A DNA stretch of 64,000 nucleotides from an uncultured Alphaproteobacteria bacterium (lineage in GTDB: Bacteria > Pseudomonadota > Alphaproteobacteria > Rhizobiales > Xanthobacteraceae), in NCBI GenBank assembly GCA_963840065.1, contig CAWIXF010000007.1, positions 23,955-87,954 on the forward strand. The letters run 5' to 3'. The notes beneath the pieces are model-generated. The model did no database searches and had not been told where the DNA came from. It saw only the letters and a list, made by a program, of their open reading frames with translations. This document shows positions 763 through 62,229 of this stretch, piece by piece. The position numbers and the translations under genes were made by a program. How positions within the stretch are numbered: position 1 is the first letter of the stretch; each line of letters starts with the position of its first letter.

Positions 763-960
763 TATGAGATCCCTGATGCGTTTAGGCGGTTTGCTGCATA
801 AACGCCGTATAACCTTTGGGCTTTATTTGCGCAGATTGGAAGGGGACCGCTCGACGCAGCCCTGGAATGTCAGGTGAACGCCGCCAACCGGTTGCGATTG
901 GCCAGATATTACCGGCGAAATCAAAGCCGAAGCCGCACCGCCTCGTACTACGGCGGCGTG

Positions 961-43346: not shown

Positions 43347-43421
43347 GGGCGGTTAGCTCAGCGGGAGAGCACACCCTTCACACGGGTGGGGTCGTAGGTT
43401 CGATCCCTACACCGCCCACCA
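43347..43421 (+). tRNA. tRNA-Val(CAC)
   Basis: Full cloverleaf: GGGCGGT acceptor, anticodon stem CACCC/GGGTG with loop TTCACAC, GGTTCGATCC T-loop, encoded CCA. Confidence 0.97.
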
Positions 43422-44354: not shown

Positions 44355-45236
44355 TCAAATCACAAACCGCACCTGGCCGGCCTCGTCGAGGTCGTAACCG
44401 CCCAATTCCAGTGCGCGGGCGATCAGCTCGTCCGTGCGCAGAAAGCGGACGAGTTTCTGCAAGGGCGCATGGAAATAATCGCGCTGCCGCATCACCAGAT
44501 CGAAATGTTCCCAGACGATCGGCACGAAAGCGAGGCCGGCCGCATTGGCGACGCCGCGTGTGGCAATGCCGACATCGGCACGGCCGGCACGGACCGCCTG
44601 CGCGATGTCAGGACCGGTCGGGCACATCGGTTTGGCGGCGTTGAGTTTCTCGAGTGCAAGCTGCGTCCGGTGCAACAGCGCGAGCAGCAAGAGCTGGGCA
44701 CCCGCACCCTCCGGCCGCAGCGCCATGCGCGCGTTCTTGGTGGCGACGTCTTCGATCGACTCAATCTTGAGCGGATTGCCTGGCGCCACCAGGAAGCCCT
44801 GCTCGCGCCGGCAAAACGCGATCAACACGGCATCCTGCAGGTCGCTGCGACTCCGAAGCGTAACCACATTGGTGTCGGCTTCCGCATCCTCCAGCGCGTG
44901 CAGATGAATGGCCGCGGCGACCGTTTCGCCGGCAATGAAGCGATTGAAACCGGCCTCGCTGCCGACCGCCAAGGTCGCAAGCCCCGAACGGCTTTCACGC
45001 AGGGCCCATTCCAGCAGCGGATCGTGGCTGCCAGAGACAATCGGCGCCGGTTCGGGACGCGCCATCCCGTTCGGGTGCACGACACTGGCCGCAAGCCATT
45101 GATCGAGTTCGGCCTTGGGGAAAAGCCACCGTCCGGTGACCTTGGTGCACGGCACCGAGCCCTCGGCCACCATCTCGTAGATCTTGCGTTCCTTGAGACG
45201 GAGGTAGGCGGCAGCTTCAGAAGTTGTGAAAAGCAT
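44355..45236 (-). CDS. Excisionase-type HTH plus PBP (molybdate/tungstate-binding-like) transcriptional regulator
   Basis: MLFTTSEAAAYLRLKERKIYEMV..., GSHDPLLEWAL, CRREQGFLVAPGNP, GRADVGIA. Confidence 0.9.
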   Translation of the reverse strand: MLFTTSEAAAYLRLKERKIYEMVAEGSVPCTKVTGRWLFPKAELDQWLAASVVHPNGMARPEPAPIVSGSHDPLLEWALRESRSGLATLAVGSEAGFNRFIAGETVAAAIHLHALEDAEADTNVVTLRSRSDLQDAVLIAFCRREQGFLVAPGNPLKIESIEDVATKNARMALRPEGAGAQLLLLALLHRTQLALEKLNAAKPMCPTGPDIAQAVRAGRADVGIATRGVANAAGLAFVPIVWEHFDLVMRQRDYFHAPLQKLVRFLRTDELIARALELGGYDLDEAGQVRFVI

Positions 45237-45830
45237 GGTGGCGCCCGGCACTGATATGCAGCGTTTCCAAGAGTTGCAAAAACTGCAAAAATAACAAGGG
45301 GGTGAGTAGCCACATAGCACAAGGCTATGAAATTCTGGGCGTTTTGTGCCGGGGATGGCACAGCCGCGATCCCGGCCAGACAACTGTCGGCTGCGGTCAC
45401 GGCTTCGGCGCCGGCGGAGGTCTCGACAATGCAGCCGCGCAACAGCGCTTGCGCTACACGCAACGCCTTCAACGTGTTCCGACATGCCCGCGGTCGTCAC
45501 GAAGCGAAACGATCTTATTGAAAGGCGTCACCGCAAAACGTTCTATGGGAAGACAGGCCTTCCATAATCTTCGCCCACGAGAAAGCACATCGGCGCAATT
45601 TGGTGCCAAAACATGACGTTCCATTTCGTCTTCACCCATCGAGACTTCTCAGACATCGACAAGTTCGAGTGATAGCCCGCGCGTGACTTGACGTTTCACG
45701 CCACCCCTCACGGCGGCGATGTTCCAATCTCGCGACTATCACACTTGCCCTTGAGAGAAGGCCACGGAACAAGTAAGGTTTTTTTGAAGCACATGGATAC
45801 AGCTTTTTCATTCTTACTTGTCGCGTAAAA

Positions 45831-46628
45831 ATGATAAATCGACTCAATGATTATCTGGCCAACGGTGAGAAAGTACACGGTTGGCTGAACCAGTATAGCG
45901 CATCGTTTATTGCAGAAATTTCAACGCTCCAAGCCCGCAGCGGAATACACGGCGCGGTCGGCGAGATTGGGGTGCACATGGGACGTCTATTTATCATTTT
46001 AAAGCTAACCGCAATGCCGGGCGAAAAGTGCTTTGCAATAGACGTCTTTGGCGACCAAGAAAAAAATACCGACCATTCGGGTTTTGGCGATCTCGACATA
46101 TTTTTGAGGAACGTTCGCGACTGGACGGGCGACAGCGCTATAGAAGTTATTCAGGCGTCTTCACTGGACGTTAAGCCAGATAAACTCATTGCCACAACCG
46201 GACCATGTCGGTTTGTGTCAATAGATGGCGGCCATACCGAAGAATGTACATATAACGATCTTCTGTTGGCCGAATCCGTTCTTGTCGAGCGCGGCGTCGC
46301 TATTCTCGACGATATCTTCAATCAAATGTGGCCGGGCGTCGCCACGGGTGCGTCAAAATACTTCATCAATTCGGCCACAAAACTTCGCCCGTTCGCGATT
46401 ACACCGAACAAACTGTATCTGGCAACGGCAAGCGCTCACGCGTTTTACAGAGACCATCTCCACAAGACGCAATCGGCGCACTTTAATAAGACCGACAGCA
46501 TGTTTGGCAGTCGCGTTGATATATTTGGATGTGCACAGGCACGTACGTCTTGGCAACGGTTGATGCGAATGGCCATTTCAAATAGCCCGATTGGGCCATA
46601 CGCAAGATTCATCAAGAAATATATTTGA
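45831..46628 (+). CDS. Class I SAM-dependent methyltransferase (Methyltransf_24-like)
   Basis: GEIGVHMGR, FVSIDGGHT, AILDD; AT-rich codon usage. Confidence 0.85.
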   Translation: MINRLNDYLANGEKVHGWLNQYSASFIAEISTLQARSGIHGAVGEIGVHMGRLFIILKLTAMPGEKCFAIDVFGDQEKNTDHSGFGDLDIFLRNVRDWTGDSAIEVIQASSLDVKPDKLIATTGPCRFVSIDGGHTEECTYNDLLLAESVLVERGVAILDDIFNQMWPGVATGASKYFINSATKLRPFAITPNKLYLATASAHAFYRDHLHKTQSAHFNKTDSMFGSRVDIFGCAQARTSWQRLMRMAISNSPIGPYARFIKKYI

Positions 46629-46694: not shown

Positions 46695-46738
46695 TGGCGC
46701 TCCCTACGGGAATCGAACCCGTGTTTCAGCCTTGAGAG
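46695..46738 (-). mobile_element. att core: 3' half of tRNA-Glu(CTC)
   Basis: Minus strand CTCTCAA-GGCTG-AAAC-ACGGG-TTCGATT-CCCGT-AGGGAGC-G-CCA; begins at the anticodon loop, 5' half absent. Confidence 0.9.
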
Positions 46739-46747
46739 TCTGTATTT

Positions 46748-46869
46748 CGAACGACGGCGAACGGTTGCGAACACGAGAAAAGCTATATTTCATAAGGGTT
46801 TTCGTTTAGTCTGTGCGGAGGCGTCCGGATCAATTCGTCCACGGATAATAGGCAAAAAGTAGGCAAAAA
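46748..46869. promoter_or_regulatory. Putative att arm: phased CGAAC x3 (10-bp period) and tandem TAGGCAAAAA x2
   Basis: CGAAC at 46748, 46758, 46768; TAGGCAAAAA at 46849 and 46860. Confidence 0.6.
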
Positions 46870-46884
46870 TTTCGAAGAGGGACC

Positions 46885-48186
46885 ATGCCCCGCACCGTTC
46901 GCGAAGCGTCGCTTGCCACGCGCAGCGCACGTTTGCGTCTCACGATTGCTCCTAAGCCGTACTGGCGCATGATCGAACAGGGTCTGCATCTCGGCTACCG
47001 AAGGCGCGCAACCGGCGGTTCCTGGATCGCGCGCCGGCGCAATGACCAAGCAAGCTATCGCGAAGCTAAGCTCGGTCTCGCCGACGATCTGCAGGACGCC
47101 AACGGCACGACTATCCTCGACTTCGCGCAGGCACAGCGTGCAGCACGGCGCTGGTGCACACAGGAGCAGCGTGTAGCCGCCGGCGACGGCCCGGTGACCG
47201 ACGGGCCCTATACCGTCGCACGCGCGGTCGCCGACTATCTCGACGACTATTGCCGTCGCGGCGGCAAATCGATCGATAACACCGAGAGCATCATGAGGCG
47301 TAACATCCTGCCTCCGCTCGGCAAGCTGCCGGTTACCAAGCTCACACCGCAGCGCCTGCGCGATTGGCACCGCGGCATCGCCGAACGCGCGCGCTTCTTG
47401 CGCTCGCGCAAGGGCGAGCCCGCCAGGTTTGCCCCCTACGATCCGAGAAACCCGGAGGACGTGCGACGTCGACGCGCCAGCGCTAACCGTGCGCTCAGCT
47501 ATCTCAAGGCGGCGCTCAACGTCGCGTGGCGCAACGGTCTTGTCCCTAACGACGATGCCTGGCGCCGGGTCAAGCCATTCCGTGCAGTGGAAGCCCCCCT
47601 CGTCCGCTATCTCAGCAACGACGAGTTGGCACGACTACTCCATGCCAGCGCCGGCGCCTTCCGCGATCTCGTCTATCTGGCACTGCTTACCGGTTGCCGC
47701 TACGGCGAGCTCTGTCGATTCACGGTCGCCGACTACAACGCCGACGTCGGCACCCTGAGCGTGCGCATTGCCAAGGGCGGCAAAGTGCGCCACGTCACCC
47801 TCACCAAGGAAGCAAGCGCCTTCGTCGACCGTCTGGTCGCAGGCCGACAGCCGGGAGAACCCCTGTTGCGCCGCGACGACGGGCGGGCCTGGAAGCGGGC
47901 CGAGCAAGTGCGCCCGATGCGCGAGACCTGCGCGCGGGCGGGTATCGTGCCGAACGTCGGCTTCCATGTACTGCGTCACACCCACGGATCGTTGCTGGCG
48001 ATGCGGGCGGTGCCGATGGCGGTGGTCGCCCGCCAGCTCGGCCACGCCGACACCCGCATGACCGAGAAGCACTATGCGCATCTTGCGCCCAATTACGTGT
48101 CCGACACGATCAGGCAGAGCTTTCCGCGGCTGGCACGTGACGAGCGGGTCGTCGTTCCGATCAATCGTCGCCGTAACAGCGCCTGA
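46885..48186 (+). CDS. Tyrosine recombinase/integrase, intact
   Basis: N-terminal arm-binding region (YWRMIEQGLHLGYRR); catalytic R (TGCRYGE), K, HVLRH, LGHA, HY. Confidence 0.96.
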   Translation: MPRTVREASLATRSARLRLTIAPKPYWRMIEQGLHLGYRRRATGGSWIARRRNDQASYREAKLGLADDLQDANGTTILDFAQAQRAARRWCTQEQRVAAGDGPVTDGPYTVARAVADYLDDYCRRGGKSIDNTESIMRRNILPPLGKLPVTKLTPQRLRDWHRGIAERARFLRSRKGEPARFAPYDPRNPEDVRRRRASANRALSYLKAALNVAWRNGLVPNDDAWRRVKPFRAVEAPLVRYLSNDELARLLHASAGAFRDLVYLALLTGCRYGELCRFTVADYNADVGTLSVRIAKGGKVRHVTLTKEASAFVDRLVAGRQPGEPLLRRDDGRAWKRAEQVRPMRETCARAGIVPNVGFHVLRHTHGSLLAMRAVPMAVVARQLGHADTRMTEKHYAHLAPNYVSDTIRQSFPRLARDERVVVPINRRRNSA

Positions 48187-48188
48187 AC

Positions 48189-48235
48189 GCCTTCTAAGCT
48201 GAGGGTCGCTGGTTCGAATCCAGCCCGGGTCGCCA
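48189..48235 (+). mobile_element. att core: 3' half of tRNA-Arg(TCT)
   Basis: GC-CTTCTAA-GCTGA-GGGTC-GCTGG-TTCGAAT-CCAGC-CCGGGTC-G-CCA, 2 bp after the integrase stop; 5' half absent. Confidence 0.9.
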
Positions 48236-48296
48236 CGTGTTTTCAATGACTTAAGCCAAGCTGCTTGGGGGTGGGTCTTGGCCAATTCCGGCCCCA

Positions 48297-48315
48297 GGGT
48301 AACACCGGGGTAACA
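48297..48315. repeat. Tandem GGGTAACA x2, putative integrase arm sites
   Basis: gggtaaca-ccg-gggtaaca, about 60 bp right of the Arg core; TTTCAATGACTTA at 48241. Confidence 0.55.
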
Positions 48316-48417
48316 GCAAACCGATTTCTACGCCGCCGACCCCCTACACATTACAGGAGCGCGCGTGACGAGCATGCGGCGCGCAGGACGGTTGCCGCGC
48401 CTCCAGGAGACCCCGCC

Positions 48418-48560
48418 ATGCGCGACGACATCTTCAGACCGCCCGTCACCCTCGCGCGCGAGGCGCTCTACAACAAAGTCTGGAGTACCCCGCTGCGCCG
48501 GCTGGTTCGCCGCGCGCAGGCGTGAAGCGCAGCAGCCCACCTCAAGGGTACTGGCCTGTT
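48418..48560 (+). pseudogene. Remnant of an integrative-element-associated HTH-like protein
   Basis: AGGAG RBS; LAREALYNKVWSTPL then PPQGYW in another frame, recalling the REELYELVW..P...PPRGYW family with an internal deletion (from memory, not searched). Confidence 0.5.
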
Positions 48561-48748: not shown

Positions 48749-49495
48749 TCACATAGCGTTGCTTTGCAGAATTCGAAGGACATCCTCTGTTTTTGTCACC
48801 CAGCCCAACTTGGATTCGAAATTGTACAATGTGGCCTGTCGCACAAAGTCAGGGCCAGTATGGTCCATAGCGTCTTCAACCAAGATCGGCCAGAACTCCC
48901 TGAAGTAAGCATCTCGGGCGGTGCTTTCGACGCAGACGTTGGTCGCGACGCCGGTAAAGATCAGGTGTTGGACATCGAGACCGTGGAGCAGTGATTCGAG
49001 GTTGGTGCTTGCGAATCCGCTATAGCGGGGCTTCTGCACGACGTAGTCGCCGGTTACGGGTTTCAGATCGTCGACGATCTCCCAGCCCCAGGTCCCCTCG
49101 ATAATGAGCTTGTCACGGACCTCCGGACGCTCCTTCATCAACTTGAATAACATCTGCTTGCGGATGTTCGGCGATTGCGGACCGCCTGCATTGCTCAAAT
49201 CGGGCTTGTAGCCAAACTGTAGGTAAATCACCTTGACGCCTGCCCCCCGGGCTGCGGGCAGCAGTTTCTTGTTTGCTTCAATGACAGATCCGATACGAGC
49301 CTCGTCAATTCCGGTTCCGATATCGAGCATGCCGCCCTTCGACGCATAGGCGTTTTGCATGTCAACGACGATGATCGCTGTCCGGTTGATGTCGATCTCA
49401 ACGTCAACCGGTCTCGCCTTGAGCGCGACCACCGTGCGACCACGAGCGTTGTCGATGCGATCTGATCCTTGTGCGCCTCTTGGCCGAATGTTCAT
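48749..49495 (-). CDS. Isochorismatase-family cysteine hydrolase, RutB-like
   Basis: VVDMQNAYASKGG, QKPRYSGF, FTGVATNVCVESTARDAYF. Confidence 0.92.
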   Translation of the reverse strand: MNIRPRGAQGSDRIDNARGRTVVALKARPVDVEIDINRTAIIVVDMQNAYASKGGMLDIGTGIDEARIGSVIEANKKLLPAARGAGVKVIYLQFGYKPDLSNAGGPQSPNIRKQMLFKLMKERPEVRDKLIIEGTWGWEIVDDLKPVTGDYVVQKPRYSGFASTNLESLLHGLDVQHLIFTGVATNVCVESTARDAYFREFWPILVEDAMDHTGPDFVRQATLYNFESKLGWVTKTEDVLRILQSNAM

Positions 49496-49503
49496 GACGG
49501 CTC

Positions 49504-50112
49504 CTACTTGTTTACGACCTTGCGATAATCCGCGGACGGCGTGTGAGCAGCGGGCCAGTTCATCCCGTCTTCGAAACGGGCGAAAACGTGTGCATGCCGA
49601 GCAAAGCCGCCTTCCATTAGCGCTACCGAGACAATCTCCACGATGGCAAGGTCGTCGTAGCCGGCATCACGCAAGGCTTCGAACTCGTCGTCTGTCATTG
49701 GCTCGTTGATCGTGAGCTTACGGGCCACCCGATATACCGCCTTCTCGGTCTCCGGCAGATCGGAATTCTCGAAGTGATTGAGCTTTTCAACCTCTTCGGC
49801 ATCCATCTGCAAACGGTCGATCAGGTCGGTCTTATGGAAATTGATACAACGTGGACAGTCCGTAGCCACCGCGCAGACCATGGCGATTTTGTTCATTAAG
49901 TCGCGAGGCACGCGGCCCTTTAACAGTTCAAGTTGCTTCTGTAACTCCCACCAGGCCTTCAGCAGCGGCGGTGAGATGGCAAAGAAGCCGAGCAACGGTC
50001 CGAGCCACCGCGGATCCCGCAGACGGCAGATTTCGTCATAGATGTGTTCGACCTCAGGCCCGGCTTCACTCGGCTTTACCAGTTTGACTAGCTCAGCTTT
50101 TCGATTACTCAC
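49504..50112 (-). CDS. AhpD/carboxymuconolactone decarboxylase-family protein
   Basis: DCPRCINFH (CxxCxxxH); GTG start at 50112 behind GGAGG; 8 bp upstream of the RutB-like gene. Confidence 0.82.
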   Translation of the reverse strand: MSNRKAELVKLVKPSEAGPEVEHIYDEICRLRDPRWLGPLLGFFAISPPLLKAWWELQKQLELLKGRVPRDLMNKIAMVCAVATDCPRCINFHKTDLIDRLQMDAEEVEKLNHFENSDLPETEKAVYRVARKLTINEPMTDDEFEALRDAGYDDLAIVEIVSVALMEGGFARHAHVFARFEDGMNWPAAHTPSADYRKVVNK

Positions 50113-50307
50113 CTGAACCTCCTGCCAAAAAATTAGTTCCTGTATGCTATAGAGATTCCCACCAACCAGCATCAGCAAAGATGTTGCCTACTCCGCGGGC
50201 CTCCAAAGATTAATATCTATAGTCGTACCCATCGGCGCTGCTCTATTGTTGGAGCTCGGCATCAAAAGCGGAAGTAAAGGCCATTCGCTTCAATATCGGC
50301 TTCGCGC

Positions 50308-50571
50308 TCAAGGGCGAAGATGGTCGCTTAACACGCCGCCGAATATCGCCTGAAAACTCCGCGCATATCGCAAGTCGGCAAAATGGAAGACCTGGAACCA
50401 TTCGTCATCCTTACGGATCAACCGGCTGTGCTGCAGTTGGTCGATCTGCACGTGAAACAGAAACACCGCATCCAGGTTTTCGCCGCCGACGGCCTTTGCC
50501 CGCACCGTGACCTGGTAAGCGTATTCCGGATTGACCGAGTGTCCGGTTGGTTGGCTTCGGGCGCGTGTCAT
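50308..50571 (-). CDS. Possible small hypothetical protein or remnant
   Basis: C-terminal FQVFHFADLRYARSFQAIFGG resembles small rhizobial proteins; start uncertain. Confidence 0.35.
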   Translation of the reverse strand: MTRARSQPTGHSVNPEYAYQVTVRAKAVGGENLDAVFLFHVQIDQLQHSRLIRKDDEWFQVFHFADLRYARSFQAIFGGVLSDHLRP

Positions 50572-50619
50572 TTAGGATAAATAGCAGAGCAGAGGTCCAC
50601 AATACCAGGGTCCAACATA

Positions 50620-50780
50620 CCTGTGTGTACCGAAAACCTAACCCCGCATGTAGTGGTGGTGAAACTCGCCAAGGACCTTGCGTGAACTGATGCTTCCAGT
50701 TCGCTGAATGAGCCGAACGTTTGGCACATCCTTGTCCAGCTATGGATGCGTAGCGACCTTACTGTCGCAATGCAGCGAAT
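50620..50780. mobile_element. Possible terminal remnant of an rve/integrase-core-type element
   Basis: CCTGTGTGTACCGAAAAC...GTGGTG...CATCCTTGTCCA resembles element ends recalled from Bradyrhizobium-like genomes; not verifiable here. Confidence 0.35.
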
Positions 50781-50908
50781 GACACGACGTGCCACTAGCG
50801 ACCGACGCACCGCAGAAAACTACACAAAAAGAAAGACCGCCAGTGCGGCAGTCTCTCCGAAATCCGATCAGGTGTTTTGTACGCGGGCTTTTGGTTATAC
50901 GTGCGGTC

Positions 50909-51115
50909 TCACTTGACCTTGAGGTTGCCGGCGGATTCTTTGCCTCGATCAGAGATTATTTCGTAATCGACCTTCTGACCCTCATTGAGGGTGCTGAGAC
51001 CGGCGCGTTCGACCGCCGAAATATGAACGAACACGTCCTTGCCGCTGCCACCATCCGGTTGAATAAAACCATAGCCTTTGGTCGGATTGAACCACTTCAC
51101 AGTACCGCTCGCCAT
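50909..51115 (-). CDS. cspA: Cold-shock protein (second CSD gene)
   Basis: [21 protein letters not shown]...[13 protein letters not shown]. Confidence 0.95.
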
Positions 51116-51209
51116 CATCGCTCTCCACGTTGAAGAAGCATTTATATCGAGTGTGGCAGGACACGCATAGCCGATAGATTCGCCTGAGCCTGATGTCCGC
51201 TTCTGGTCC

Positions 51210-51540
51210 ATGCGGTATGAATTCACGGACGATAAATGGGCCCCCGTCAGACCGCACCTCTCGAATAAGCCACGTGGCCGTATGACGCGGATTGGATCAG
51301 GGCGCTCGCTAGCGAGCAAGGGGCGTGAGCAAATATCCCGCCCAAACGAAACCGTAAAGAGGCAATCTGCTTCAGTCCATAATCTCTACCGTGCGCGAAA
51401 CTTGGTCGAGCGGTACTTCATCAAGATCAAGCACTGTCGCCGTATCGCCACCCGCCACGACGAGCTCGCAGCCAACTATCTTGCCTTCATCAAGCTTGTA
51501 TCTATAGAGACTTGGCTTCGTGCTTATGAGTCCGCGCCCT
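51210..51540 (+). mobile_element. Internally deleted IS5-family (IS427-like) element
   Basis: Transposase N-terminus [17 protein letters not shown] joined to C-terminus [35 protein letters not shown]; terminal repeat tatgagtccgcgccc at 51525-51539. Confidence 0.85.
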
Positions 51541-51588
51541 GCTGGCATACCGGTCCATAAGTGCAGTCTCCGCTTATCGCCGGGACCT

Positions 51589-52404
51589 CTAGCTGGACTT
51601 ACGCTCACCAGTTTCTTTGTTTTTGGCAAGACGCTCATATTCTGTCTGGATAAGTTCTTTACCGTAAGCTCGTTCGAGCCGACGAACGGTAAAATGGCCC
51701 AGAGCTACAGCCTGAAAATGTTCGATAAATATGTAATTTACCGCGGCGCCACCCAACGCGCCGATCACCGGCATCGACTGAGCCGCAACCTTTTCCGTTA
51801 CAACTACTCCAAAGCGAGAGGCCACTTGAGCGATAAAGCGCACCAGCACAGGGGCGCTTCCATCAATGATACCGTGGTTAGCGATATAACGCGCGGCTTC
51901 AGTCACGCTTTTGGCAAGCAAGCCACGCAAGGCAAAATATCCGCTTTCAGAGGCATCGTCCGACCCAGTCCGTCCGCCCAGGGCAAAGACTTCCACGCAC
52001 GAGAGTGCCGTTTCCGGATCGGAAAGATCTTCGCCCTCGCTTCGCGCAATGTCCGCGATAGATCTGAGCATGATGATTGTCGAAACAGGCAGCTCGATTG
52101 GGAGTGTTGGCAAACCAAAAGCGCCGCCAGCAGCGCCAGACGCCGTTGCTAAAGCTTTGTGCAAGAGCTGCGATCCTGCGTGAGGTGAGCGCTGCAAAGA
52201 CAACAGGGCTACCTGAAGCGCCATCTCTAATGCTTTGGAGACGGCTTTCGTGATCACATTGGTGGCCGGAGCCGGCATCGCACTTCCAAGGATTTCGATC
52301 GGCTTACCGATGATATCGGCAAGACGCGCGGCTAGTCCGGGATGTTCAAGCGCATGAACGGCGCTGCGCAGTGCTACTAAATCCCCTTGGCTTAAGTCCG
52401 CCAT
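51589..52404 (-). CDS. EcsC-family protein
   Basis: ALEHPGLAARLADIIGKPIE, ELPVSTIIMLRSIADIARSEGEDL, QAVALGHFTVRRLERAYG. Confidence 0.9.
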   Translation of the reverse strand: MADLSQGDLVALRSAVHALEHPGLAARLADIIGKPIEILGSAMPAPATNVITKAVSKALEMALQVALLSLQRSPHAGSQLLHKALATASGAAGGAFGLPTLPIELPVSTIIMLRSIADIARSEGEDLSDPETALSCVEVFALGGRTGSDDASESGYFALRGLLAKSVTEAARYIANHGIIDGSAPVLVRFIAQVASRFGVVVTEKVAAQSMPVIGALGGAAVNYIFIEHFQAVALGHFTVRRLERAYGKELIQTEYERLAKNKETGERKSS

Positions 52405-52823
52405 GTCCAACTCAATTGAAATTCTGCGTCTACTCGACCGTAGGCGAATTTGCGATGGTGTCGAGTCCCGTTGCGACCGAGCCAGCGAGATTACGAGGGA
52501 TTTCAAGACCAGAAAGCATGAGTTCGAGCAGCGACCATTTGTCTCCGAAAGCGGCCAATGCGCGTGGCACTCGCTCAAGATTCCGCTTATGTCTCAACTT
52601 CCGATAAATACCGTTATCGGATGTCAAACGTTGACCCTCTCGGGCGAGCGCAAACCACATTCACCTCGCTCCGGTTTGCCCAATGCCGGACAACATGTAG
52701 TTCCAAGGCCCCCAAAAGCAGAAATGCGCAAGCACTAGCGACGCAATATCACCTTCTACCTTGATCATTTATGGGTTTATGGAGTACCGATCGGAATAAT
52801 CAAAGACGCGCGTGAGGCCCCCG

Positions 52824-54074
52824 ATGGTACATCAAATAATTGGCGACAGCGGCGCTCCGACACCGCTGGCGCATTACTGCCAAGGCGTCGTGGTGGGCGA
52901 TCACGTCTATGCCGCAGGCCAGATCGCCTCGGACTACCGCACCGGCGTCGCGCCGGAAGCCCGGGTGGAGACAGCCTTTCCTTACTATGGGTCCGACATC
53001 CAAAGGCAGACCCGTTACGTTCTAGAGAACCTGAGAAAGACCTTCCGGGCGGCGGGAGCCGATCTCGACAACGTCGTCAAGGCGCAAGTCTTTTTGACCG
53101 ACCTCAACGACTTTTTTTACTTCGACCAAGTGTGGAAGGAGTTCTTCCCCTCGCCGCCTCCGCGTACCACCGTTGGCGTCACCGGCTTGCTGGTGCCCGG
53201 TTGCAAAGTCGAGATCGATCTCGTTGCAGTCAAGTCGGGCGTCAAGCGTACCGTAATTGGCGACAGCGGCGCTCCGACACCGCTGGCGCATTACTGCCAA
53301 GGCGTCGTGGTGGGCGATCACGTCTATGCCGCAGGCCAGATCGCCTCGGACTACCGCACCGGCGTCGCGCCGGAAGCCCGGGTGGAGACAGCCTTTCCTT
53401 ACTATGGGTCCGACATCCAAAGGCAGACCCGTTACGTTCTAGAGAACCTGAGAAAGACCTTCCGGGCGGCGGGAGCCGATCTCGACAACGTCGTCAAGGC
53501 GCAAGTCTTTTTGACCGACCTCAACGACTTTTTTTACTTCGACCAAGTGTGGAAGGAGTTCTTCCCCTCGCCGCCTCCGCGTACCACCGTTGGCGTCACC
53601 GGCTTGCTGGTGCCCGGTTGCAAAGTCGAGATCGATCTCGTTGCAGTCAAGTCGGGCGTCAAGCGTACCGTAATTGGCGACAGCGGCGCTCCGACACCGC
53701 TGGCGCATTACTGCCAAGGCGTCGTGGTGGGCGATCACGTCTATGCCGCAGGCCAGATCGCCTCGGACTACCGCACCGGCGTCGCGCCGGAAGCCCGGGT
53801 GGAGACAGCCTTTCCTTACTATGGGTCCGACATCCAAAGGCAGACCCGTTACGTTCTAGAGAACCTGAGAAAGACCTTCCGGGCGGCGGGAGCCGATCTC
53901 GACAACGTCGTCAAGGCGCAAGTCTTTTTGACCGACCTCAACGACTTTTTTTACTTCGACCAAGTGTGGAAGGAGTTCTTCCCCTCGCCGCCTCCGCGTA
54001 CCACCGTTGGCGTCACCGGCTTGCTGGTGCCCGGTTGCAAAGTCGAGATCGATCTCGTTGCAGTCAAGGGGTGA
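52824..54074 (+). CDS. Three-domain RidA/YjgF/UK114 protein (single-chain triple Rid)
   Basis: Each unit has YCQG...VYAAGQI, QTRYVLENL, VVKAQVFL, PPRTTVGV (catalytic Arg), KVEID; units joined by KSGVKRTV. Confidence 0.9.
   Translation: MVHQIIGDSGAPTPLAHYCQGVVVGDHVYAAGQIASDYRTGVAPEARVETAFPYYGSDIQRQTRYVLENLRKTFRAAGADLDNVVKAQVFLTDLNDFFYFDQVWKEFFPSPPPRTTVGVTGLLVPGCKVEIDLVAVKSGVKRTVIGDSGAPTPLAHYCQGVVVGDHVYAAGQIASDYRTGVAPEARVETAFPYYGSDIQRQTRYVLENLRKTFRAAGADLDNVVKAQVFLTDLNDFFYFDQVWKEFFPSPPPRTTVGVTGLLVPGCKVEIDLVAVKSGVKRTVIGDSGAPTPLAHYCQGVVVGDHVYAAGQIASDYRTGVAPEARVETAFPYYGSDIQRQTRYVLENLRKTFRAAGADLDNVVKAQVFLTDLNDFFYFDQVWKEFFPSPPPRTTVGVTGLLVPGCKVEIDLVAVKG
52837..54068. repeat. Tandem repeat, 417-bp period, 2.95 copies, no differences detected
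   Basis: Units start at 52837, 53254, 53671; alternative-frame ORFs also recur identically at 417-bp offsets. Confidence 0.97.
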
Positions 54075-54881
54075 AACACCGTCTGCAGACTTTTAAATGT
54101 TCACATAGTCTGTCGGCGTTATCATACTTGGCAGACTCTTTATTGATCGCCACTGCTACGTGCCGAGGCAGCGCTCCAGAAAGGTGGCATTGACTCATTT
54201 CCAGCTCGACATTCACAGGTTCGGTGCGCCAGTGCCTTCACCTCTGCCGTGATCGCCTTCGGAAGAGGGTCACTAACTCCTCGCCAAAAGATTTCGTCAG
54301 TATCACCCATCACGCTCACTTGCTCACTGCGCGTGTCGAAAATCGACACGGGCCTAATCCTTCCGTCACATTTGTAAATTCTCCATGGAGCCGACGCACT
54401 TTGAAGAATGCAAATCTACAAACTGCGACGAGGTGCCACAGACGATCTGGGTCTCGATTTTGCAATGAATCAGCCGGATGAACCGAATGACATGATCATC
54501 GTCGGAAACAATATTTTCGACGCCGGCTCGTCGCGCGAGGCAGTTGTCAATGCCCTCGACAATTACGGCATCCGCTGCGCAAATGACAGTCGATCGGTGA
54601 CATCGCGCAAAACTGGGTCGAACATAGCAGTTGCCCACATTCGCTTTCGACAACACGCAATCGCAATGGAAAAACCATGATCTTCTAAGCTTCTCGAAGG
54701 CCGGGACGCCGAAAAGACGATGTTGCGCCGCACCGAGATCGTCGTTTTCAGAAGGCCCCTCCCACCAATCGTGGCGCTGCCGAGATCTGATGGCCGATCA
54801 CGAGGCTGCGAATGCAACGATGCCCATTGCCAACGCTGCAGAAAATTCGCTCTAATACCCCAACACACATTGGAGGGCACC

Positions 54882-56045
54882 ATGATGAAACGATCATTCC
54901 GCGCATTCCTAATACCGACCGCCCTAATGGCTGGCCTGCTTGCAGTTTCGGCAACAACGGGGTTCGCCGCCGATAAGGTCATCAAGATTGGCGGCCTATT
55001 TCCAATATCCGGTCCCGGCTCCTACTTCGGCGTGCAAGACAAACAGGGCGCCGAGCTCGCAGTCGAGCAACTCAACAAGTCCGGAGTGAACGGATACAAG
55101 TTTGAAGTTCAATTTGAAGACTCTGCCTGTAGCCCCCTGCCCGCAACGCAGGCAGCCAAACGCCTAGTCGAGCAGTTCAAGCCCGACGTTGCCATCGGCG
55201 AAGAATGCTCTGACGCAACGCTCGCGATCATGCCGGTCATGGCGCAGGCCAAGATCCCGCTTCTCAATGCCGGCTCCTCCTCGATCAAGGTAACTGAGCC
55301 CGGCAATCCCTGGACCTTCCGGATCATGCCGAACGAGGTGATGCAGGGCATAGACATCGCTACCAACGCCTACAAGCGCCTCAACGCACGCACCGCAGTC
55401 GTGCTGCACGAGAACACGAATGCCGGTATCGGCAACGCGAAAGTCTTCGCGGAAACATTCACGAAGCTCGGCGGAAAGATTTTGGCCGATATCGGCTTCG
55501 GGCGCGACGTGAACGACTTCACGTCAATCGCAACCCGCGTCGCCGGTCTAGGCAAGATTGACGTGATTCCGACATACACGCTCGAAGGTCAGGGTTTGAA
55601 GATTACGCAAGCCCTTGCACAAGCTGGTGTCGTGAAGGGTGGCGGCGGTCACTCAATTCAGCTCGGCACGATCTGGCTTCCCTTCGGCTTCGAGAAAAAA
55701 GCCGGCAAGGCGGCGCTCGGCTATGTCCGTATCGTGCAGTTCGACCCAACCGATCAACGCCCCGTCGTGCGCAATTTCATCCAGGCCTTCAAGGCCAAAT
55801 ACAACCAGGACCCCACGCACATCAATGCCCACGCTTACGACCAGGTCATGCTGATCGCGGACGTCGTGCGACGTGGCGGCAAGGATGCCAAGTCCATTCG
55901 CGACGGCTTGGCTGCGACGAAAGACTTCTCCGGCGTGACCGGCAGCGTCGCCTTCGACAAGACCAATCAGAATACCAAGATGGATACCGTCCATTACATG
56001 GAGACAATGCCTGATTTGTCCTGGAAAGCATTGAAGTGGAATTAG
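54882..56045 (+). CDS. ABC transporter substrate-binding protein (Liv/branched-chain type)
   Basis: Signal peptide ending GFA; IKIGGLFPISG, EDSACSP, FRIMPN, YDQVM, FSGVTG. Confidence 0.93.
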   Translation: MMKRSFRAFLIPTALMAGLLAVSATTGFAADKVIKIGGLFPISGPGSYFGVQDKQGAELAVEQLNKSGVNGYKFEVQFEDSACSPLPATQAAKRLVEQFKPDVAIGEECSDATLAIMPVMAQAKIPLLNAGSSSIKVTEPGNPWTFRIMPNEVMQGIDIATNAYKRLNARTAVVLHENTNAGIGNAKVFAETFTKLGGKILADIGFGRDVNDFTSIATRVAGLGKIDVIPTYTLEGQGLKITQALAQAGVVKGGGGHSIQLGTIWLPFGFEKKAGKAALGYVRIVQFDPTDQRPVVRNFIQAFKAKYNQDPTHINAHAYDQVMLIADVVRRGGKDAKSIRDGLAATKDFSGVTGSVAFDKTNQNTKMDTVHYMETMPDLSWKALKWN

Positions 56046-56055
56046 TCCACCGGAC

Positions 56056-56937
56056 ATGCTGACCGTCATCCTCCAACAGGGGATAAACGGCATCGTTGTG
56101 GGGAGCCTCTACGTGCTGGTCGCGTTGGGGCTTACCCTCATTTATGGCGTGCTGGTTCAGATCAATTTTGCCCACGCGGACTTTGTCACATTGGGGGCTT
56201 TCACCGCCTATTTTGTCACCCATCTGCTCAGCGGCAATTATTTCGTCGGGATCGCCGCTGCGCTCGTGGTTGGGGGAATGCTGGGATGGCTGTTGAATGC
56301 CACGATCTTTGCCCCATTGCGCGAACGCGGAAGCGAACTGCTGCCCTTGATCGCGACCATTGGCGTCTCGATCATGCTGCAGAATGCCATGTTGGTATTG
56401 CTCGGGCCGATCCCATACGCTTTCGATACGCCCTACAGCAATCACGTGATCCGCTTCGCCGGGCTGTTTTTTACGGTACAGAGTGTACTGATCATCGTGA
56501 TGTCCACGATCACTATCGGAATACTTTACGCTTTCATGAAGTTCACCTTTCTCGGTAAAGCGCTGCGCGCGGTCTCGCAGGATCGCGAAACCGCGGGACT
56601 TATGGGTATCAATCCCAACTACGTGATCATGTTGACTTTCGTTATCGCATCGGCGCTGGCGGGAATGAGCGGAGCAATGCTGGGGCCGGTGCTGGTCCTT
56701 ACGCCGTTTGCAGGCACGTCGGTCATCGTCAAAGCTTTCGCAATCGTCATCATCGGCGGCTTTGGCAACGTCGAGGGAACGATTATCGCGGGTCTGATCG
56801 TTGGATTGATCGAAAGCTATACAACGCAATTTCTCGATCCGGGATTGATCGACATCGTCGTCTTCGCGCTGCTGCTGCTAACGCTTGCGGTGCGACCGAC
56901 CGGTTTGATCGCAGAGCGGCGCGAAGAAAATGTCTAG
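56056..56937 (+). CDS. Liv-type ABC permease (LivH-like)
   Basis: GSLYVLVALGLTLIYG..INFAH, GKALRAVSQDRETAGLMGIN. Confidence 0.95.
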   Translation: MLTVILQQGINGIVVGSLYVLVALGLTLIYGVLVQINFAHADFVTLGAFTAYFVTHLLSGNYFVGIAAALVVGGMLGWLLNATIFAPLRERGSELLPLIATIGVSIMLQNAMLVLLGPIPYAFDTPYSNHVIRFAGLFFTVQSVLIIVMSTITIGILYAFMKFTFLGKALRAVSQDRETAGLMGINPNYVIMLTFVIASALAGMSGAMLGPVLVLTPFAGTSVIVKAFAIVIIGGFGNVEGTIIAGLIVGLIESYTTQFLDPGLIDIVVFALLLLTLAVRPTGLIAERREENV

Positions 56938-57961
56938 CCTTGCGAGCGCTCAAACTTCGGTGGCAAGCGCCATTCTCACATCGCGACGTTTTTGGCTGGT
57001 GATGGTGGCGATCGCGATCGGCCTGTTGCCGATGATTCTAACGGATTCCTACTGGCAGACGAACCTGATTGTTTGCGCCATCAACGTGTTACTAGCGATC
57101 GGCCTTGATTTTGTCCTCGGTTACGCCGGTCAGCTCAATCTCGGCCAATCCGCGTTCTACGGCATTGGCGCCTACGCCTCGACATTGCTGATTACGCGGC
57201 TCGGCGTGCCATTCTGGGTTGCTTTTATGTGCGGCGTATTGCTCGCCGGACTTGCCGGTATGCTGCTGTCGATCTTCGCAGTCCGTTTGCGCGGACATTA
57301 TCTTGCCATCGCCTCGCTTGGCTTTGCCGTCATTACATACCAGGTCCTGCTCAACTGGATCAGTCTTACTCAGGGTCCGCTCGGCATCTATGCCATCGCA
57401 CCGCCGCCGCCGCTGACGATCCCCAGCATGCCGGCGATCGAGTTCACCGATCTCGGTAACCTTTTCTATCTGACCGCCGGCTTCGCGCTGCTCACCTATA
57501 TATTGCTCGACCAGTTGGTTCGCTCTCCAGTCGGCGAAACCTTGACCGCGATCCGTGAAGACGAGGTGTCGGCGACCTCTCTGGGTATCAATTGTCCGAA
57601 ATGGAAGGTATTTGCCTTTGCCATTAGTTCCGCGGTTGCCGGCGCCGCCGGCTGCTTTTATGCCAGCTTCGTCGGCACCCTGGTTCCGGATGCCTTTTTC
57701 ATCACCGAATCGTTCACCATCTTGGCAATGGTCATCGTCGGCGGCATGGGAACCCTTATCGGCCCCGCACTGGGCGCGATCCTGCTGACGATACTGCCCG
57801 AGTTGCTACGGGGCATCGGAGACTTGCGGCTGATCGTGTACGGGATTTCGGTGACGCTCGTCGTGCTATTCATGCCGGGTGGTATGGTGCAAGCCGCTCG
57901 CCTCGTCGCTGGGCGCGTGCGCCGACGTCTGGCCACCACGCCAGCCAGGCCCAAGACATGA
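56930..57961 (+). CDS. Liv-type ABC permease (LivM-like)
   Basis: GYAGQLNLGQSAFYGIGAY, RLRGHYLAIASLGF, IVGGMGTL. Confidence 0.95.
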   Translation: MSSLASAQTSVASAILTSRRFWLVMVAIAIGLLPMILTDSYWQTNLIVCAINVLLAIGLDFVLGYAGQLNLGQSAFYGIGAYASTLLITRLGVPFWVAFMCGVLLAGLAGMLLSIFAVRLRGHYLAIASLGFAVITYQVLLNWISLTQGPLGIYAIAPPPPLTIPSMPAIEFTDLGNLFYLTAGFALLTYILLDQLVRSPVGETLTAIREDEVSATSLGINCPKWKVFAFAISSAVAGAAGCFYASFVGTLVPDAFFITESFTILAMVIVGGMGTLIGPALGAILLTILPELLRGIGDLRLIVYGISVTLVVLFMPGGMVQAARLVAGRVRRRLATTPARPKT

Positions 57962-58776
57962 CATCGGCCGCATCAGCCGCAATGGAGTCACGAGCGCCTG
58001 GCGCCGATGGCAACATACTGTTCCGGGCCGAAGGGTTGCAAAAGAGTTTCGGCGGCGTGCAAGCCGTGAGTGATATCTCTTTGAGCATACCCGCAGGCGT
58101 CGTGTTCGCCGTCATCGGACCTAACGGCGCCGGAAAATCGACGCTGCTCAACCTGATGAGCGGCCTCTACCAGCCGGATGCCGGTACGATGGCATTTGCC
58201 GGCGTCGATCTGATCGGCATGCCGGCACAACGGCGCGTCCGTTACGGGCTGGCACGCACGTTTCAAAAAATCAGGCTGTTCAAGCAACTGTCGGTGCTTG
58301 AAAACGTGATCGCGGGATTTCACACCCACCACGATATCCCGCTCTGGCAGTACATCCTCCACGGAGCGGCATTTCGCCGCGACCAAGCCCGATGCCATAC
58401 CGAGGCGATGGAGCTCTTGGCCTTCGTGGGTCTAAAACATCGCGCACAGGTGACAGCGAGCTCGCTGGCTTATGGCGAGCAACGCATGCTCGAAATCGCC
58501 CGGGCACTCGCTACGGCGCCGCGCTTGCTGATGATCGATGAACCGGCGGCCGGGTTGAATGCCGCCGAGGTCGAGGCCCTGCTGGCGCGCATCGCCGAGC
58601 TCCGGCAGCGCGGCATGACCGTCGTCATGGTCGAGCATAATATGGACCTCGTCATGAAGGTCGCCGACAGGATCCTCGTCATGGATTACGGACAGTATCT
58701 GTTCGAGGGTGTGCCAGCCGAGGTTCAGGCCGATTCGGGCGTGATTGCGGCGTATCTAGGGGGCGAACTCCAGTGA
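57958..58776 (+). CDS. Liv-type ABC ATPase (LivG-like)
   Basis: GPNGAGKST, LAYGEQRMLEIARAL, DEPAAG. Confidence 0.96.
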   Translation: MTSAASAAMESRAPGADGNILFRAEGLQKSFGGVQAVSDISLSIPAGVVFAVIGPNGAGKSTLLNLMSGLYQPDAGTMAFAGVDLIGMPAQRRVRYGLARTFQKIRLFKQLSVLENVIAGFHTHHDIPLWQYILHGAAFRRDQARCHTEAMELLAFVGLKHRAQVTASSLAYGEQRMLEIARALATAPRLLMIDEPAAGLNAAEVEALLARIAELRQRGMTVVMVEHNMDLVMKVADRILVMDYGQYLFEGVPAEVQADSGVIAAYLGGELQ

Positions 58777-59525
58777 CAGAGCTGCTCGCCACCGAAAGGC
58801 TCGAACTGGCTTACGGCCAGGTTCCCGCCTGCCGCGACATCACGATCAGCGTGAATGAAGGCGAGATTGTCACCCTGATCGGCGCCAACGGAGCGGGAAA
58901 AACCACGACATTGCGCGCAATCGCGGGGGCTTTGCTTCCGCGCGCGGGCACGATCCGGTTTGCCGGGCGCGACATTACGCGCCTGCCTTCTTATGAGCGC
59001 ACCATGCTCGGAATCGCCCTCGTTCCTGAAGGCCGCCATGTCTTCCCATTCCTGACTGTCCGGGAGAACCTTGAACTTGGCGGATTCAAATTCCGCAAAG
59101 ACGGTGCGAAAATTCGATCTCTGATCGATCGAATGTTTACGATGTTTCCGAGGCTGAGCGCTCGCGCCGCTCAGAATGCCGGCACTCTCAGCGGCGGTGA
59201 GCAGCAAATGCTGGTGCTTGGTCGCGCGATGATGTCCGAACCACGCCTGCTCTGCCTCGACGAGCCGTCCCTCGGGTTGGCGCCACTCATTGTTCAGGAT
59301 ATTTTTCACACGATTATCTCCATCAATGCGACGGGCACCAGCGTCCTTCTCGTTGAGCAGAATGCCCGATATGCGCTCGAAACGGCAAGCAGAGGTTATG
59401 TATTGCAGACCGGCTCGATTATCGCATCCGGCCCGTGCAGCACGCTGAAGCAAGATGAGCGCGTGCAGCAAGCCTATCTCGGCCGCGATGCTGCGGGCAA
59501 ACCGCAGGTCGCGGTGTCGCCATGA
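58773..59525 (+). CDS. Liv-type ABC ATPase (LivF-like)
   Basis: GANGAGKTT, LSGGEQQML, DEPSLGLAP. Confidence 0.96.
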   Translation: MTELLATERLELAYGQVPACRDITISVNEGEIVTLIGANGAGKTTTLRAIAGALLPRAGTIRFAGRDITRLPSYERTMLGIALVPEGRHVFPFLTVRENLELGGFKFRKDGAKIRSLIDRMFTMFPRLSARAAQNAGTLSGGEQQMLVLGRAMMSEPRLLCLDEPSLGLAPLIVQDIFHTIISINATGTSVLLVEQNARYALETASRGYVLQTGSIIASGPCSTLKQDERVQQAYLGRDAAGKPQVAVSP

Positions 59526-60286
59526 ACAGCGTGAACCTCATCGGCAAGGCCGCGATCATAAGCGGGGCCGGTAGCGGGATTGGGCGCGCCACCGCCAGGG
59601 CCTTCGCCTCGGCCGGCGCAGCAGTCATGTGCCTCGACATCGATCGCAGCGGGGCGGAGGAAACCGCGCAGATCATCACGAGCGCCGACGGCAGGGCGCT
59701 GGCAAGGCAATGCGACGTCAGTCAGGAACCCGATGTCCAAGCAGCGGCTAGAGCGGCGCGATCGGCGTTCGGCGCGATCCATGTGCTGGTCAACGCCGCA
59801 GCCAACAACGATCCGAACGGAAGCGTACTGGATATTTCGCCGGCCGACTGGAGCCGCGTCTTTGCGGTCAATGTCATGGGCGCCTATCTGATGAGTCGCG
59901 CCGTCCTACCCGCGATGATCGCGGCGGGTGGCGGCAGCATCATCCATATCGCGTCGCAACTGGGCCGGGTTGGGGCGCCCGCACGCGCGGCCTATTGCGC
60001 ATCGAAAGGAGCGGTGATTCAGCTTACGAAAGCAATGGCGGTCGATCACGCCGCGCAAAATATTCGCGTTAATTCTTTGTCGCCAGGTGCGGTCGAAACG
60101 CCGCGCCTGGTACTGCGTTTCGGCGACATGGAAACAGCGCGCCGCCTGGCTGGCCCCAAACATCTGCTGAACCGGCTGGGTCAGCCCGAAGAAATCGCCC
60201 AGGCCGCTTTGTTTCTCGCCAGTGACGCAGCGAGTTTCATGACCGGCGCCGACATGCTCGTCGATGGCGGCTATACGGCGACCTGA
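59522..60286 (+). CDS. Classical short-chain dehydrogenase/reductase
   Basis: SGAGSGIG, LVNAAA, YCASK, IRVNSLSPG. Confidence 0.95.
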   Translation: MNSVNLIGKAAIISGAGSGIGRATARAFASAGAAVMCLDIDRSGAEETAQIITSADGRALARQCDVSQEPDVQAAARAARSAFGAIHVLVNAAANNDPNGSVLDISPADWSRVFAVNVMGAYLMSRAVLPAMIAAGGGSIIHIASQLGRVGAPARAAYCASKGAVIQLTKAMAVDHAAQNIRVNSLSPGAVETPRLVLRFGDMETARRLAGPKHLLNRLGQPEEIAQAALFLASDAASFMTGADMLVDGGYTAT

Positions 60287-60301
60287 AACCGCGCGTCGAA
60301 T

Positions 60302-61180: not shown

Positions 61181-61317
61181 GGTTATCCTCGCAATGATGG
61201 CTTCGATAAAAGCTATATCCCAACCCGTCCGCGTGCCGTTGATAGCACTGCTGCCCCGGGCAATTTAGAGCGACTATGACTATTGGATTATCGCAGCACA
61301 AGAAAAAAAGATGATCG

Positions 61318-62220: not shown

Positions 62221-62229
62221 GGTTACCCT

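Follow-up and report, generated by a model that had tools for sequence, protein, structure and literature searches.

The tyrosine integrase gene (int) at positions 46885 to 48186 of this stretch of DNA, which comes from an uncultured alphaproteobacterium of the Xanthobacteraceae (the whole 64,000-nt stretch is hereafter called the window), lies between two truncated tRNA genes, a 3' fragment of tRNA-Glu(CTC) on its left and a 3' fragment of tRNA-Arg(TCT) on its right. The integrase is a member of a large alphaproteobacterial family of island integrases that target the anticodon loop of tRNA-Glu, which is the family's own attachment (att) site. A second att core, heterologous to the first, is the Arg fragment that abuts the int 3' end; it is common to the subclade of integrases that are at least 70% identical. 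We tentatively interpret the locus as a Glu island bearing a tRNA-Arg-derived pseudo-attB on int, to which an Arg-specific island, or a remnant of one, has been joined in an attL-like, decaying junction; on this tentative interpretation the locus is the junction of a composite island rather than a system of a new kind.

Both fragments run from the anticodon loop to the CCA end, and their CCA ends are directed outward from the integrase. Their boundaries were set with Logan contigs of soil metagenomes (from other soil bacteria) that carry the intact tRNA genes: contigs matching 46695-46738 go on as the 5' half of tRNA-Glu, and in those matching 48189-48235 the 5' half of tRNA-Arg precedes the match. 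These contigs bear out a first-pass annotation of the window, which had described an integrase between outward-facing Glu-CTC and Arg-TCT fragments and had taken both as junctions of the anticodon-loop type. It had also placed neither intact tRNA-Glu nor intact tRNA-Arg in the window, and indeed ARAGORN reported only a tRNA-Val(CAC) at 43347-43421, while a scan of the 64 kb for a T arm followed by an acceptor strand and CCA returned three sequences only, namely, this tRNA-Val and the two fragments. Relaxed T-arm patterns were used, as fragments whose stems are imperfect escaped strict T-arm regular expressions. Scanning the region against Rfam gave nothing useful, and internal truncated tRNAs go unreported by Rfam. 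The features around the integrase are as follows.

46695 to 46738, minus strand: tRNA-Glu(CTC) 3' fragment, 44 nt, starting at the first base of the loop CTCTCAA and ending in CCA; span matched by contigs with intact tRNA-Glu

46739 to 46884, plus strand: P arm of the Glu att site, with motifs kept in L002, L003 and L082-84

46748, 46758 and 46768 (46748-46772), in the P arm: CGAAC three times, in exact 10-bp phase

46783 to 46790, in the P arm: conserved CTATATTT

46849 to 46857 and 46860 to 46868, in the P arm: tandem arm-type sites, TAGGCAAAA twice, the sole tandem pair in the window

46885 to 48186, plus strand: tyrosine integrase, 433 aa; Pfam PF00589 (Phage_integrase), E=1e-23, residues 242-402, and PF14659

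48189 to 48235, plus strand: tRNA-Arg(TCT) 3' fragment, 47 nt, starting 2 nt before the loop CTTCTAA and ending in CCA; span matched by contigs with intact tRNA-Arg

48240 to 48253, plus strand: TTTTCAATGACTTA, resembling the integration host factor (IHF) consensus, first element of arm b, 4 nt after CCA; also found in metagenome loci

48297 to 48304 and 48308 to 48315, plus strand: GGGTAACA twice, tandem arm-type-like repeats, in motif unlike the integrase's own arm sites

48418 to 48525, plus strand: 5' remnant of the putative first gene of the Arg-side element (MRDDIFRPPVTLAREALYNKVW...), with a homologue after arm b in L091

The integrase translation carries the RHRY-type motifs TGCRYGEL, HVLRHTHG and EKHYAHL of a tyrosine recombinase catalytic domain and has 2483 homologues at E<=1e-100. 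A genome scan with one genome per species gave 80 homologous loci (43-81% identity), mostly in metagenome-assembled genomes of Hyphomicrobiales, e.g., Pseudolabrys, Methylocystis and Bradyrhizobium, and further loci were added through protein look-ups; these relatives, designated by L-numbers, are all metagenomic, and the majority are short contigs. In 80 of 88 homologous loci, a displaced tRNA-Glu 3' fragment lies upstream of int on the opposite strand, 133 to 205 nt away (anticodon CTC in 55 and TTC in 21); five of the eight loci without it are truncated by the contig end, leaving just three with enough upstream sequence. Islands of 5 to 11 kb are complete in L046, L058, L070 and L014, each being closed to the right of int by an intact tRNA-Glu that shares its strand with the fragment, and the integrase thus sits at the fragment end, with the island downstream of it. 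The cargo of such small complete islands includes, for example, a DUF927 primase-helicase-like gene. The int gene itself is under purifying selection: compared with L002, L083, L082 and L104, the ratio of nonsynonymous to synonymous divergence (dN/dS) is 0.12-0.18, with dS of 0.6-1.1.

Nearly all members of the family carry, 10 to 45 nt upstream of the int ATG, a tandem 9- to 11-mer in 11-bp phase, the sequence of which is specific to the subclade (TTAGGCAAAA, ACTCCCCAAAA, TTACCCAAAA, TTGGGCACGA, TTTCCGTAY, TTGRAGAAA and others). In the four complete islands, the motif found upstream of the ATG returns beside the intact tRNA-Glu, where an IHF-consensus-like TTTCAA(N4)TTA, 4 nt from the CCA, precedes the repeats. 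Because the same motif returns at the tRNA, we read the tandem repeats as arm-type sites. A by-product of this comparison is a rule for recognizing arm-type sites in this integrase family, as tandem 11-bp-phased repeats before the ATG that are repeated at the tRNA. On the 3' side of int, a GC-rich motif of about 60 nt (GGCGCGGGGCCGGGTCTGCAGCCCGTCGCCGGACACCAACCACCGCCGTCCGGCTTGCC), without a match in Rfam, was seen about 20 to 110 nt downstream of the gene in L005, L006, L008 and L014, the integrases of which are just ~54% identical. ARAGORN also called an 'intact' tRNA-Glu at the usual fragment position in L071 (4437-4513); its 5' half fails to pair with the acceptor 3' strand, and the call probably represents a fragment interpreted as a pseudo-tRNA.

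The Glu fragment of the window is a displaced-fragment (attR-type) junction between island and chromosome. Between it and int lies the P arm, which probably also contains the int promoter region. The CGAAC triplet and the TAGGCAAAA pair, both previously reported on the integrase side of the Glu core, were found there, the former in 10-bp phase; going by the family rule, the TAGGCAAAA pair is the window's version of the arm-type sites. Since the window holds no second TAGGCAAAA pair, the far end of the island is out of view. On the other side of the fragment, a DUF971 gene occurs in the same position and orientation in the window and in L082 (80% identical), indicating that the left flank is chromosomal; it was the sole protein match, and there was no flank synteny, when the whole window was compared by BLAST with the 80 homologous loci. 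Between this gene and the Glu fragment, the window carries 44355-45500 (HTH_17 and PBP_like) and 45831-46628 (Methyltransf_24, GC 0.51), and L082 has other genes there. This variable patch just beyond the island end may be the remnant of an older insertion.

The Arg fragment follows int in the window, L001, L002, L083, L094/95, L104 and L106, whose integrases are 72-100% identical. As the Glu-int-Arg layout repeats in the independent assemblies L002, L083, L094/L095, L104 and L106, it is not due to chance. In L002, L083, L095 and L104, the int open reading frame (ORF) continues into tRNA-Arg-like sequence, which it crosses from the D-stem (AGAGCA) through the anticodon stem, and its stop codon is the TAA of the loop cTTCTAAg; likewise, in L002, L083, L104 and L106, the ORF or its 3' flank enters tRNA-like sequence that aligns with intact tRNA-Arg genes from the D-stem onward. 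Several homologues at least 70% identical have the tRNA-Arg-encoded C-terminal tails ARASGF, ARASVF and AGAPAF, and L082, L003, L105 and L102/103 have decayed Arg-derived versions only. The Arg fragment of the window is identical to that of L106 at 46 of 47 positions and to that of L083 at 43 of 45, despite an int dS of about 1. Only one or two differences in 45 to 47 nt, against an int dS of 0.6-1.1, mean that the fragment is either constrained or repeatedly renewed.

The window copy has features of its own. Compared with L106, L002 and L083, a private 4-nt deletion just 5' of the Arg core has removed most of the 5' strand of the anticodon stem, that is, the left half-site, and has shifted the int stop (TGA, 48184-48186) to 3 nt before the core. 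The fragment also carries one private acceptor-stem substitution, C at 48226. No repeats occur to the left of the Arg core, where the sequence is integrase coding sequence, and the arm lies on the right; the junction is therefore of the B-O-P' (attL-like) type. The Arg core had been likened to an unrecombined attP or an island-island junction. The latter, a heterologous att junction, agrees with our results, and the former does not, given the B-O-P' layout and the missing P-arm repeats on the left.

Comparison of the window with L106, the integrase of which is 92.7% identical in nucleotide sequence (95% in amino acids), located the break points. The left flanks are unrelated, and identity drops to noise exactly past the CCA end of the Glu fragment; the Glu fragment and P arm are 100% identical, the Arg fragment is 98% identical, arm b only 71-73%, no closer than in other pairs of arm b, and the sequences beyond arm b are again unrelated. 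This collapse of identity, located exactly at the two fragments, marks each of them as a recombination junction. The gap between 71-73% in arm b and 98% in the Arg fragment further shows that the right-hand partner was exchanged at the Arg core after the integrases had diverged, and this exchange, together with the conservation of the fragment, argues that the Arg fragment is not an inert relic. Within the shared segment, window positions 46695-46884 and L106 positions 467-656 are identical throughout, including the 146-nt P arm, and the int coding sequences differ at 95 positions, evenly spread at ~6-7 per 100 nt. For the Glu fragment and P arm, synonymous divergence would predict far more differences than this, which points either to very strong constraint on the whole arm or to a recently exchanged segment.

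The arm to the right of the Arg core, called arm b, consists of CCA-N4-TTTTCAATGACTTA, a hairpin with a T-run, and GGGGTAAC twice. A metagenome scan with the Arg 3' end plus TTTTCAATGACTTA as the query returned 17 loci, and in 11 of them TTTTCAATGACTTA follows an intact tRNA-Arg(TCT), with arms like those at int-linked cores; the others are int-linked or other fragments. Arm b itself comes after an intact tRNA-Arg in L091, L092, L099 and L100 and after the int-linked fragment in the window, L083, L104 and L106, and a tandem GGGTAAC is confined to arm b among the loci compared. Its layout (an IHF-like site at +4 and, about 60 nt out, tandem repeats in phase) matches that of the P' arms of Glu islands in the family; the P' arm of the L014 island contains the exact reverse complement of TTTTCAATGACTTA at the same offset. 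The downstream flanks of other soil tRNA-Arg genes are unrelated to arm b, and viral_contigs contained no copy of the Arg core plus arm. A different arm, arm a, has its own Pfam-confirmed integrase and was found beside an intact tRNA-Arg in L093 and beside the int-linked fragment in L095, the two integrases being 60% identical.

The TAGGCAAAA motif occurs on neither side of the Arg core, the arms there bearing other motifs or their own integrase. Since the arm b repeats (GGGTAAC, GGGGTAAC) differ from TAGGCAAAA, the Arg site is probably served by a recombinase other than the window integrase, and we predict that the cognate integrase of arm b would have GTTACCCC-type tandem repeats upstream of its ATG. 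The first-pass annotation had offered a single integrase using two tRNA targets as one reading. This finds no support, as 80 of 88 loci are tied to tRNA-Glu and TAGGCAAAA is not in the Arg arm; what is supported is that TAGGCAAAA and GGGTAACA, each present twice, look like arm-type repeats of two specificities. That annotation had set against its reading the case that the homologues associate with one tRNA and the other core is an unrelated, inert relic. The homologues do associate with one tRNA (Glu), but the Arg core, conserved and with exchanged partners, is not inert. A gene remnant had also been noticed on the Arg side, next to the different repeat, and it too is real: the truncated ORF at 48418-48525 has a full-length, 340-aa homologue behind arm b in L091, beside a TIR-domain gene, and a similar truncated remnant of the first gene lies behind arm b in L083.

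Other tRNA-Arg loci from these searches showed further variation. Another arm after tRNA-Arg, 'c', is homologous between L086/L098 and L088/L101, with co-varying motifs behind TTTTCAATGACTTA (GTGTTGCA/TGCAACAC in the former and CATGTCGCG/CGCGACATG in the latter), the pattern to be expected of arm-type sites that evolve together with their integrases. A P4-like integrase diverges from the fragment in L098. In L092, a chimeric pseudo-tRNA (88-164, minus strand) lies 700 nt upstream of the intact tRNA-Arg (872-948, plus strand) and faces outward. It combines an Arg(TCT) 3' half with another 5' half, its loop reads CTACTAA, and its anticodon stem does not pair. It may be a hybrid from recombination with another tRNA-Arg isoacceptor; ARAGORN called it tRNA-Ser(ACT), a call that we rejected as pseudo or chimeric.

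Looking at more distant members, we found cores of other tRNAs on the 3' side of int. L102 and L103, from one sample, have identical integrases within a 1775-bp module that is 99.5% identical, and their flanks differ. The shared sequence stops within the Glu fragment at one end and, at the other, at a Lys(CTT) fragment that lies 225 nt downstream of int; of its few mismatches, two are located in the T-arm half of this Lys fragment. Behind int, L072/73 have a Met(CAT) fragment and L019 has a Ser-like T-loop fragment; with Lys, Met and Ser-like fragments all found there, a second core 3' of int is a recurrent feature of the integrase family. The integrase of L102 (3900-5900) and L103 (2050-4200), P0025, is thus seen in two contexts. 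In L103, where the Glu fragment is without its last 9 nt and has TGATGTCG repeats upstream, the module sits between inverted tRNA-Lys fragments, TTT on the minus strand (~2075-2125) and CTT on the plus strand (~4125-4172); in L102, the Lys fragment is followed 0.8 kb to its right by a gene for a 630-aa integrase, and the Glu fragment has a Cys-like fragment 190 nt to its left. Moreover, in L082 (19253-20210), a second small integrase (292 aa) is followed 40 nt on, in the same orientation, by a tRNA 3' fragment (...AGGTTCAAATCCTGCCACTCCGACCA), so the integrase-then-fragment layout exists in another integrase family as well; the fragment with AGGTTCAAATCCTGCCACTCCGACCA is also present in L102, at 6863.

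The composite island that we tentatively propose would be built as follows. A Glu island would read, from left to right, chromosome, displaced Glu fragment (minus strand), P arm of about 150 nt with arm-type sites, int (plus strand), cargo and intact tRNA-Glu (minus strand), and the one in the window would run to the right, past 64 kb. Islands specific for Arg(TCT) would recombine at the int-fused Arg core, and the sequence to the right of this core in the window, with its IHF-like site, two GGGTAAC repeats and first-gene remnant, would be the P' arm of such an island. The junction would then be attL-like, with a pseudo-tRNA left half, the core and a foreign P' arm, and the Arg-specific island would be nested in the Glu island or accreted onto it. 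We infer nesting rather than bipartite dispersal from this layout, and the recombinase acting at the core would be that of the Arg-specific island. The window Arg junction appears to be decaying, as seen in the 4-nt deletion, the acceptor substitution, the truncated first gene and a fragment of an insertion sequence (IS), and it would have lost its activity.

Several observations weigh against this interpretation. Neither junction of the window is spanned by a public read or contig, public runs containing at most 16% of its words, and the relatives are all of metagenomic origin and mostly on short contigs. The 64 kb contain neither a second integrase nor a second Arg core, and no intact tRNA-Glu either, so that the far ends of the nested island and of the Glu island are not in the window. 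Excision of a nested island is expected to leave the Glu island with its own cargo behind an intact Arg core, and no example of this was found. The interpretation does not account for the fusion of a portion of tRNA-Arg to int. Finally, the hairpin and T-run of arm b resemble a terminator, and arm b could be the native flank of tRNA-Arg, in which case a bipartite or rearrangement reading would be favored.

The bipartite alternative, the main rival, which we hold to be unlikely while giving it some weight, takes the 1.54-kb module as the small part of an element resembling the polypartite integrative and conjugative elements (ICEs), a circle with Glu and Arg attP sites on either side of int having recombined with both chromosomal tRNA genes. 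The module would bridge the tRNA-Glu 3' flank on the left and the DNA downstream of the host tRNA-Arg (an arm-b island or the native flank) on the right, the cargo would lie elsewhere between the intact tRNA-Arg and tRNA-Glu, and a chromosomal inversion would have separated the parts. It accounts for the finding that the window and L106, and likewise L102 and L103, share the module only, with flanks changing exactly at both fragments, and each int-linked intact Arg core has an arm that is also seen after intact tRNA-Arg genes; polypartite ICEs with heterologous att sites are known in related Hyphomicrobiales (PMC9174649, PMC5882170). Against it, neither the module nor the 64 kb contains a cognate second integrase, recombination directionality factor (RDF) or conjugation genes, and arm-type repeats are missing from the integrase side of the Arg core. 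In a polypartite element the att halves should adjoin native target flanks; the left flank is chromosomal, and the right one is arm b, which is laid out like the P' arm of an element (IHF-like site at +4, phased repeats, variable cargo) yet possibly native. The unrelated downstream flanks of other soil tRNA-Arg genes speak against a native origin.

It is improbable that the Arg core is the integrase's own attP or attR, as in Mx8, in a subclade that switched to or added Arg and kept the Glu fragment as a fossil in the promoter region. Such integrases, reaching across their attP, are known (Mx8, SSV; cited in PMC4383910), the int ORF does terminate in the Arg-like anticodon loop in L002, L083, L095 and L104, and the partners of the Arg core vary as those of an active site would. 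However, the Glu fragment of the subclade tracks the host tRNA (GGCTG versus GGCGA stems and T-stem variants), and its outer flank changes at the CCA between 95%-identical copies, from which we conclude that the Glu site is still used; in addition, TAGGCAAAA lies on neither side of the Arg core, where the arms have other motifs or their own integrase, and the overlap regions (CTCTCAA versus CTTCTAA) and stems of the two sites differ. Least probable is an Arg fragment that is an inert relic or the product of chimeric assembly at short tRNA repeats. The deletion and substitution in the window copy, the short-read contig L001, which breaks at both fragments, and the lack of reads spanning the window junctions would fit this explanation, but the Glu-int-Arg-arm layout occurs in at least six independent assemblies from different projects, the Arg fragment is far more conserved than synonymous sites, and repeats of 44-47 nt are short relative to assembler k-mers. 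Two other routes were rejected. Homologous recombination between the int genes of islands of the same architecture, direct or inverted, yields on paper no second fragment at the int 3' end, and a native divergent tRNA-Glu/tRNA-Arg pair followed by a deletion conflicts with the variable identity of the second core (Arg, Lys, Met, Ser-like) and with the gene upstream of tRNA-Arg, an amidase and not tRNA-Glu. The amidase at the right end of the window was rejected as this gene, being a 28% identical paralogue, and a TAGGCA/AGACAAA-like pair in the left flank of L106, considered as a P' arm, was in the wrong orientation and taken as chance.

Among known systems, the closest are genomic islands of tyrosine integrases that use the anticodon-loop sublocation of tRNA genes, following the Islander principle (PMC4383910). 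As in those, the integrase adjoins a displaced 3' tRNA gene fragment that starts at the anticodon loop, homologous islands have an intact tRNA in the same orientation at the other end, and arm-type repeats and an IHF-like site flank the core; unlike in those, the integrase is at the fragment end rather than beside the intact tRNA, and a second fragment from a different tRNA abuts the int 3' end, with neither intact tRNA in the window. The tripartite and bipartite ICEs of Mesorhizobium and Bradyrhizobium (PMC5882170, PMC9174649) similarly have segments bounded by att halves of two specificities and live in Hyphomicrobiales, and their symbiosis ICE (symICE) targets include tRNA-Glu and tRNA-Arg, Bradyrhizobium having a bipartite tRNA-Arg symICE and a tRNA-Glu symICE (PMC9174649, PMC5882170). 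Each of their att sites, however, has one integrase and one RDF, they encode conjugation genes, and their parts measure tens to hundreds of kb, whereas the 1.5-kb module here has a single integrase, and the 64 kb contain neither a second one nor an RDF or transfer genes. Mx8 IntP and the SSV-type integrases, cited in PMC4383910 as having ORFs that extend across their own attP, recall the relatives L002, L083, L095 and L104, in which the int ORF enters the tRNA-derived core and stops in the anticodon loop; the viral core is the integrase's own attP, whereas the arm motifs here point to another recombinase, and the window ORF ends 3 nt short of the core and does not extend across it. Lastly, arrays in which islands have accreted in tandem at a single att site (Islander tandems; SGI1 tandem integration, PMC2297512) also have tRNA gene fragments with element DNA on both sides as island-island junctions, and L095 has a second island with its own integrase beside the Arg core (no such integrase was found by phmmer in the 64 kb of the window). 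Known arrays repeat the same att at a chromosomal tRNA, in contrast to the core of a different tRNA found here inside an island and fused to the int gene.

The remainder of the window, to the right of the remnant, has the following features.

48749 to 64000: cargo-like region, GC 0.53-0.62 versus 0.60-0.68 to the left

51210 to 51560: fragment of an IS5-type DDE transposase

Genes in the cargo-like region encode an isochorismatase, a CMD-like protein, a cold-shock protein, EcsC, a triple RidA, a branched-chain amino acid ABC transporter, an SDR, a hydrolase, an epimerase and a CoA-transferase; the triple RidA is a single ORF (52812-54074) with three Endoribonuclease L-PSP domains, and the IS5-type fragment is nearby. 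In the window, Pfam found only metabolic and transport genes among the ORFs from 48.7 to 64 kb, with no conjugation or transfer genes, and the region 48749-64000 contains no integrase, tRNA, second Arg core or TAGGCAAAA pair. A phmmer search of the 64 kb with six diverse integrases likewise detected one integrase only and none for the Arg-side element.

The usual map of an island linked to a tRNA gene comprises one integrase, one tRNA and two ends. Here, the 3' end of int bears a second core, and in relatives both cores have exchanged partners independently. It is possible, if rather doubtful, that the int-fused tRNA-Arg(TCT) is a portable att, either a decoy attB or 'landing pad' for Arg islands or the second att of a minimal bipartite element. 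If true, a 1.5-kb integrase module would carry two independently active att junctions and link islands of different specificity, in composite or dispersed form, and the analogous second cores (Lys, Met and Ser-like) downstream of int in other family members suggest that the arrangement recurs. Mapping programs that match each fragment to an intact tRNA would be misled by such a second core. As a portable attB or a tiny bipartite att, it would offer a simple route to nested or dispersed islands of different specificity, with a bearing, if true, on the origin of polypartite ICEs and of mosaic defence or catabolic islands.

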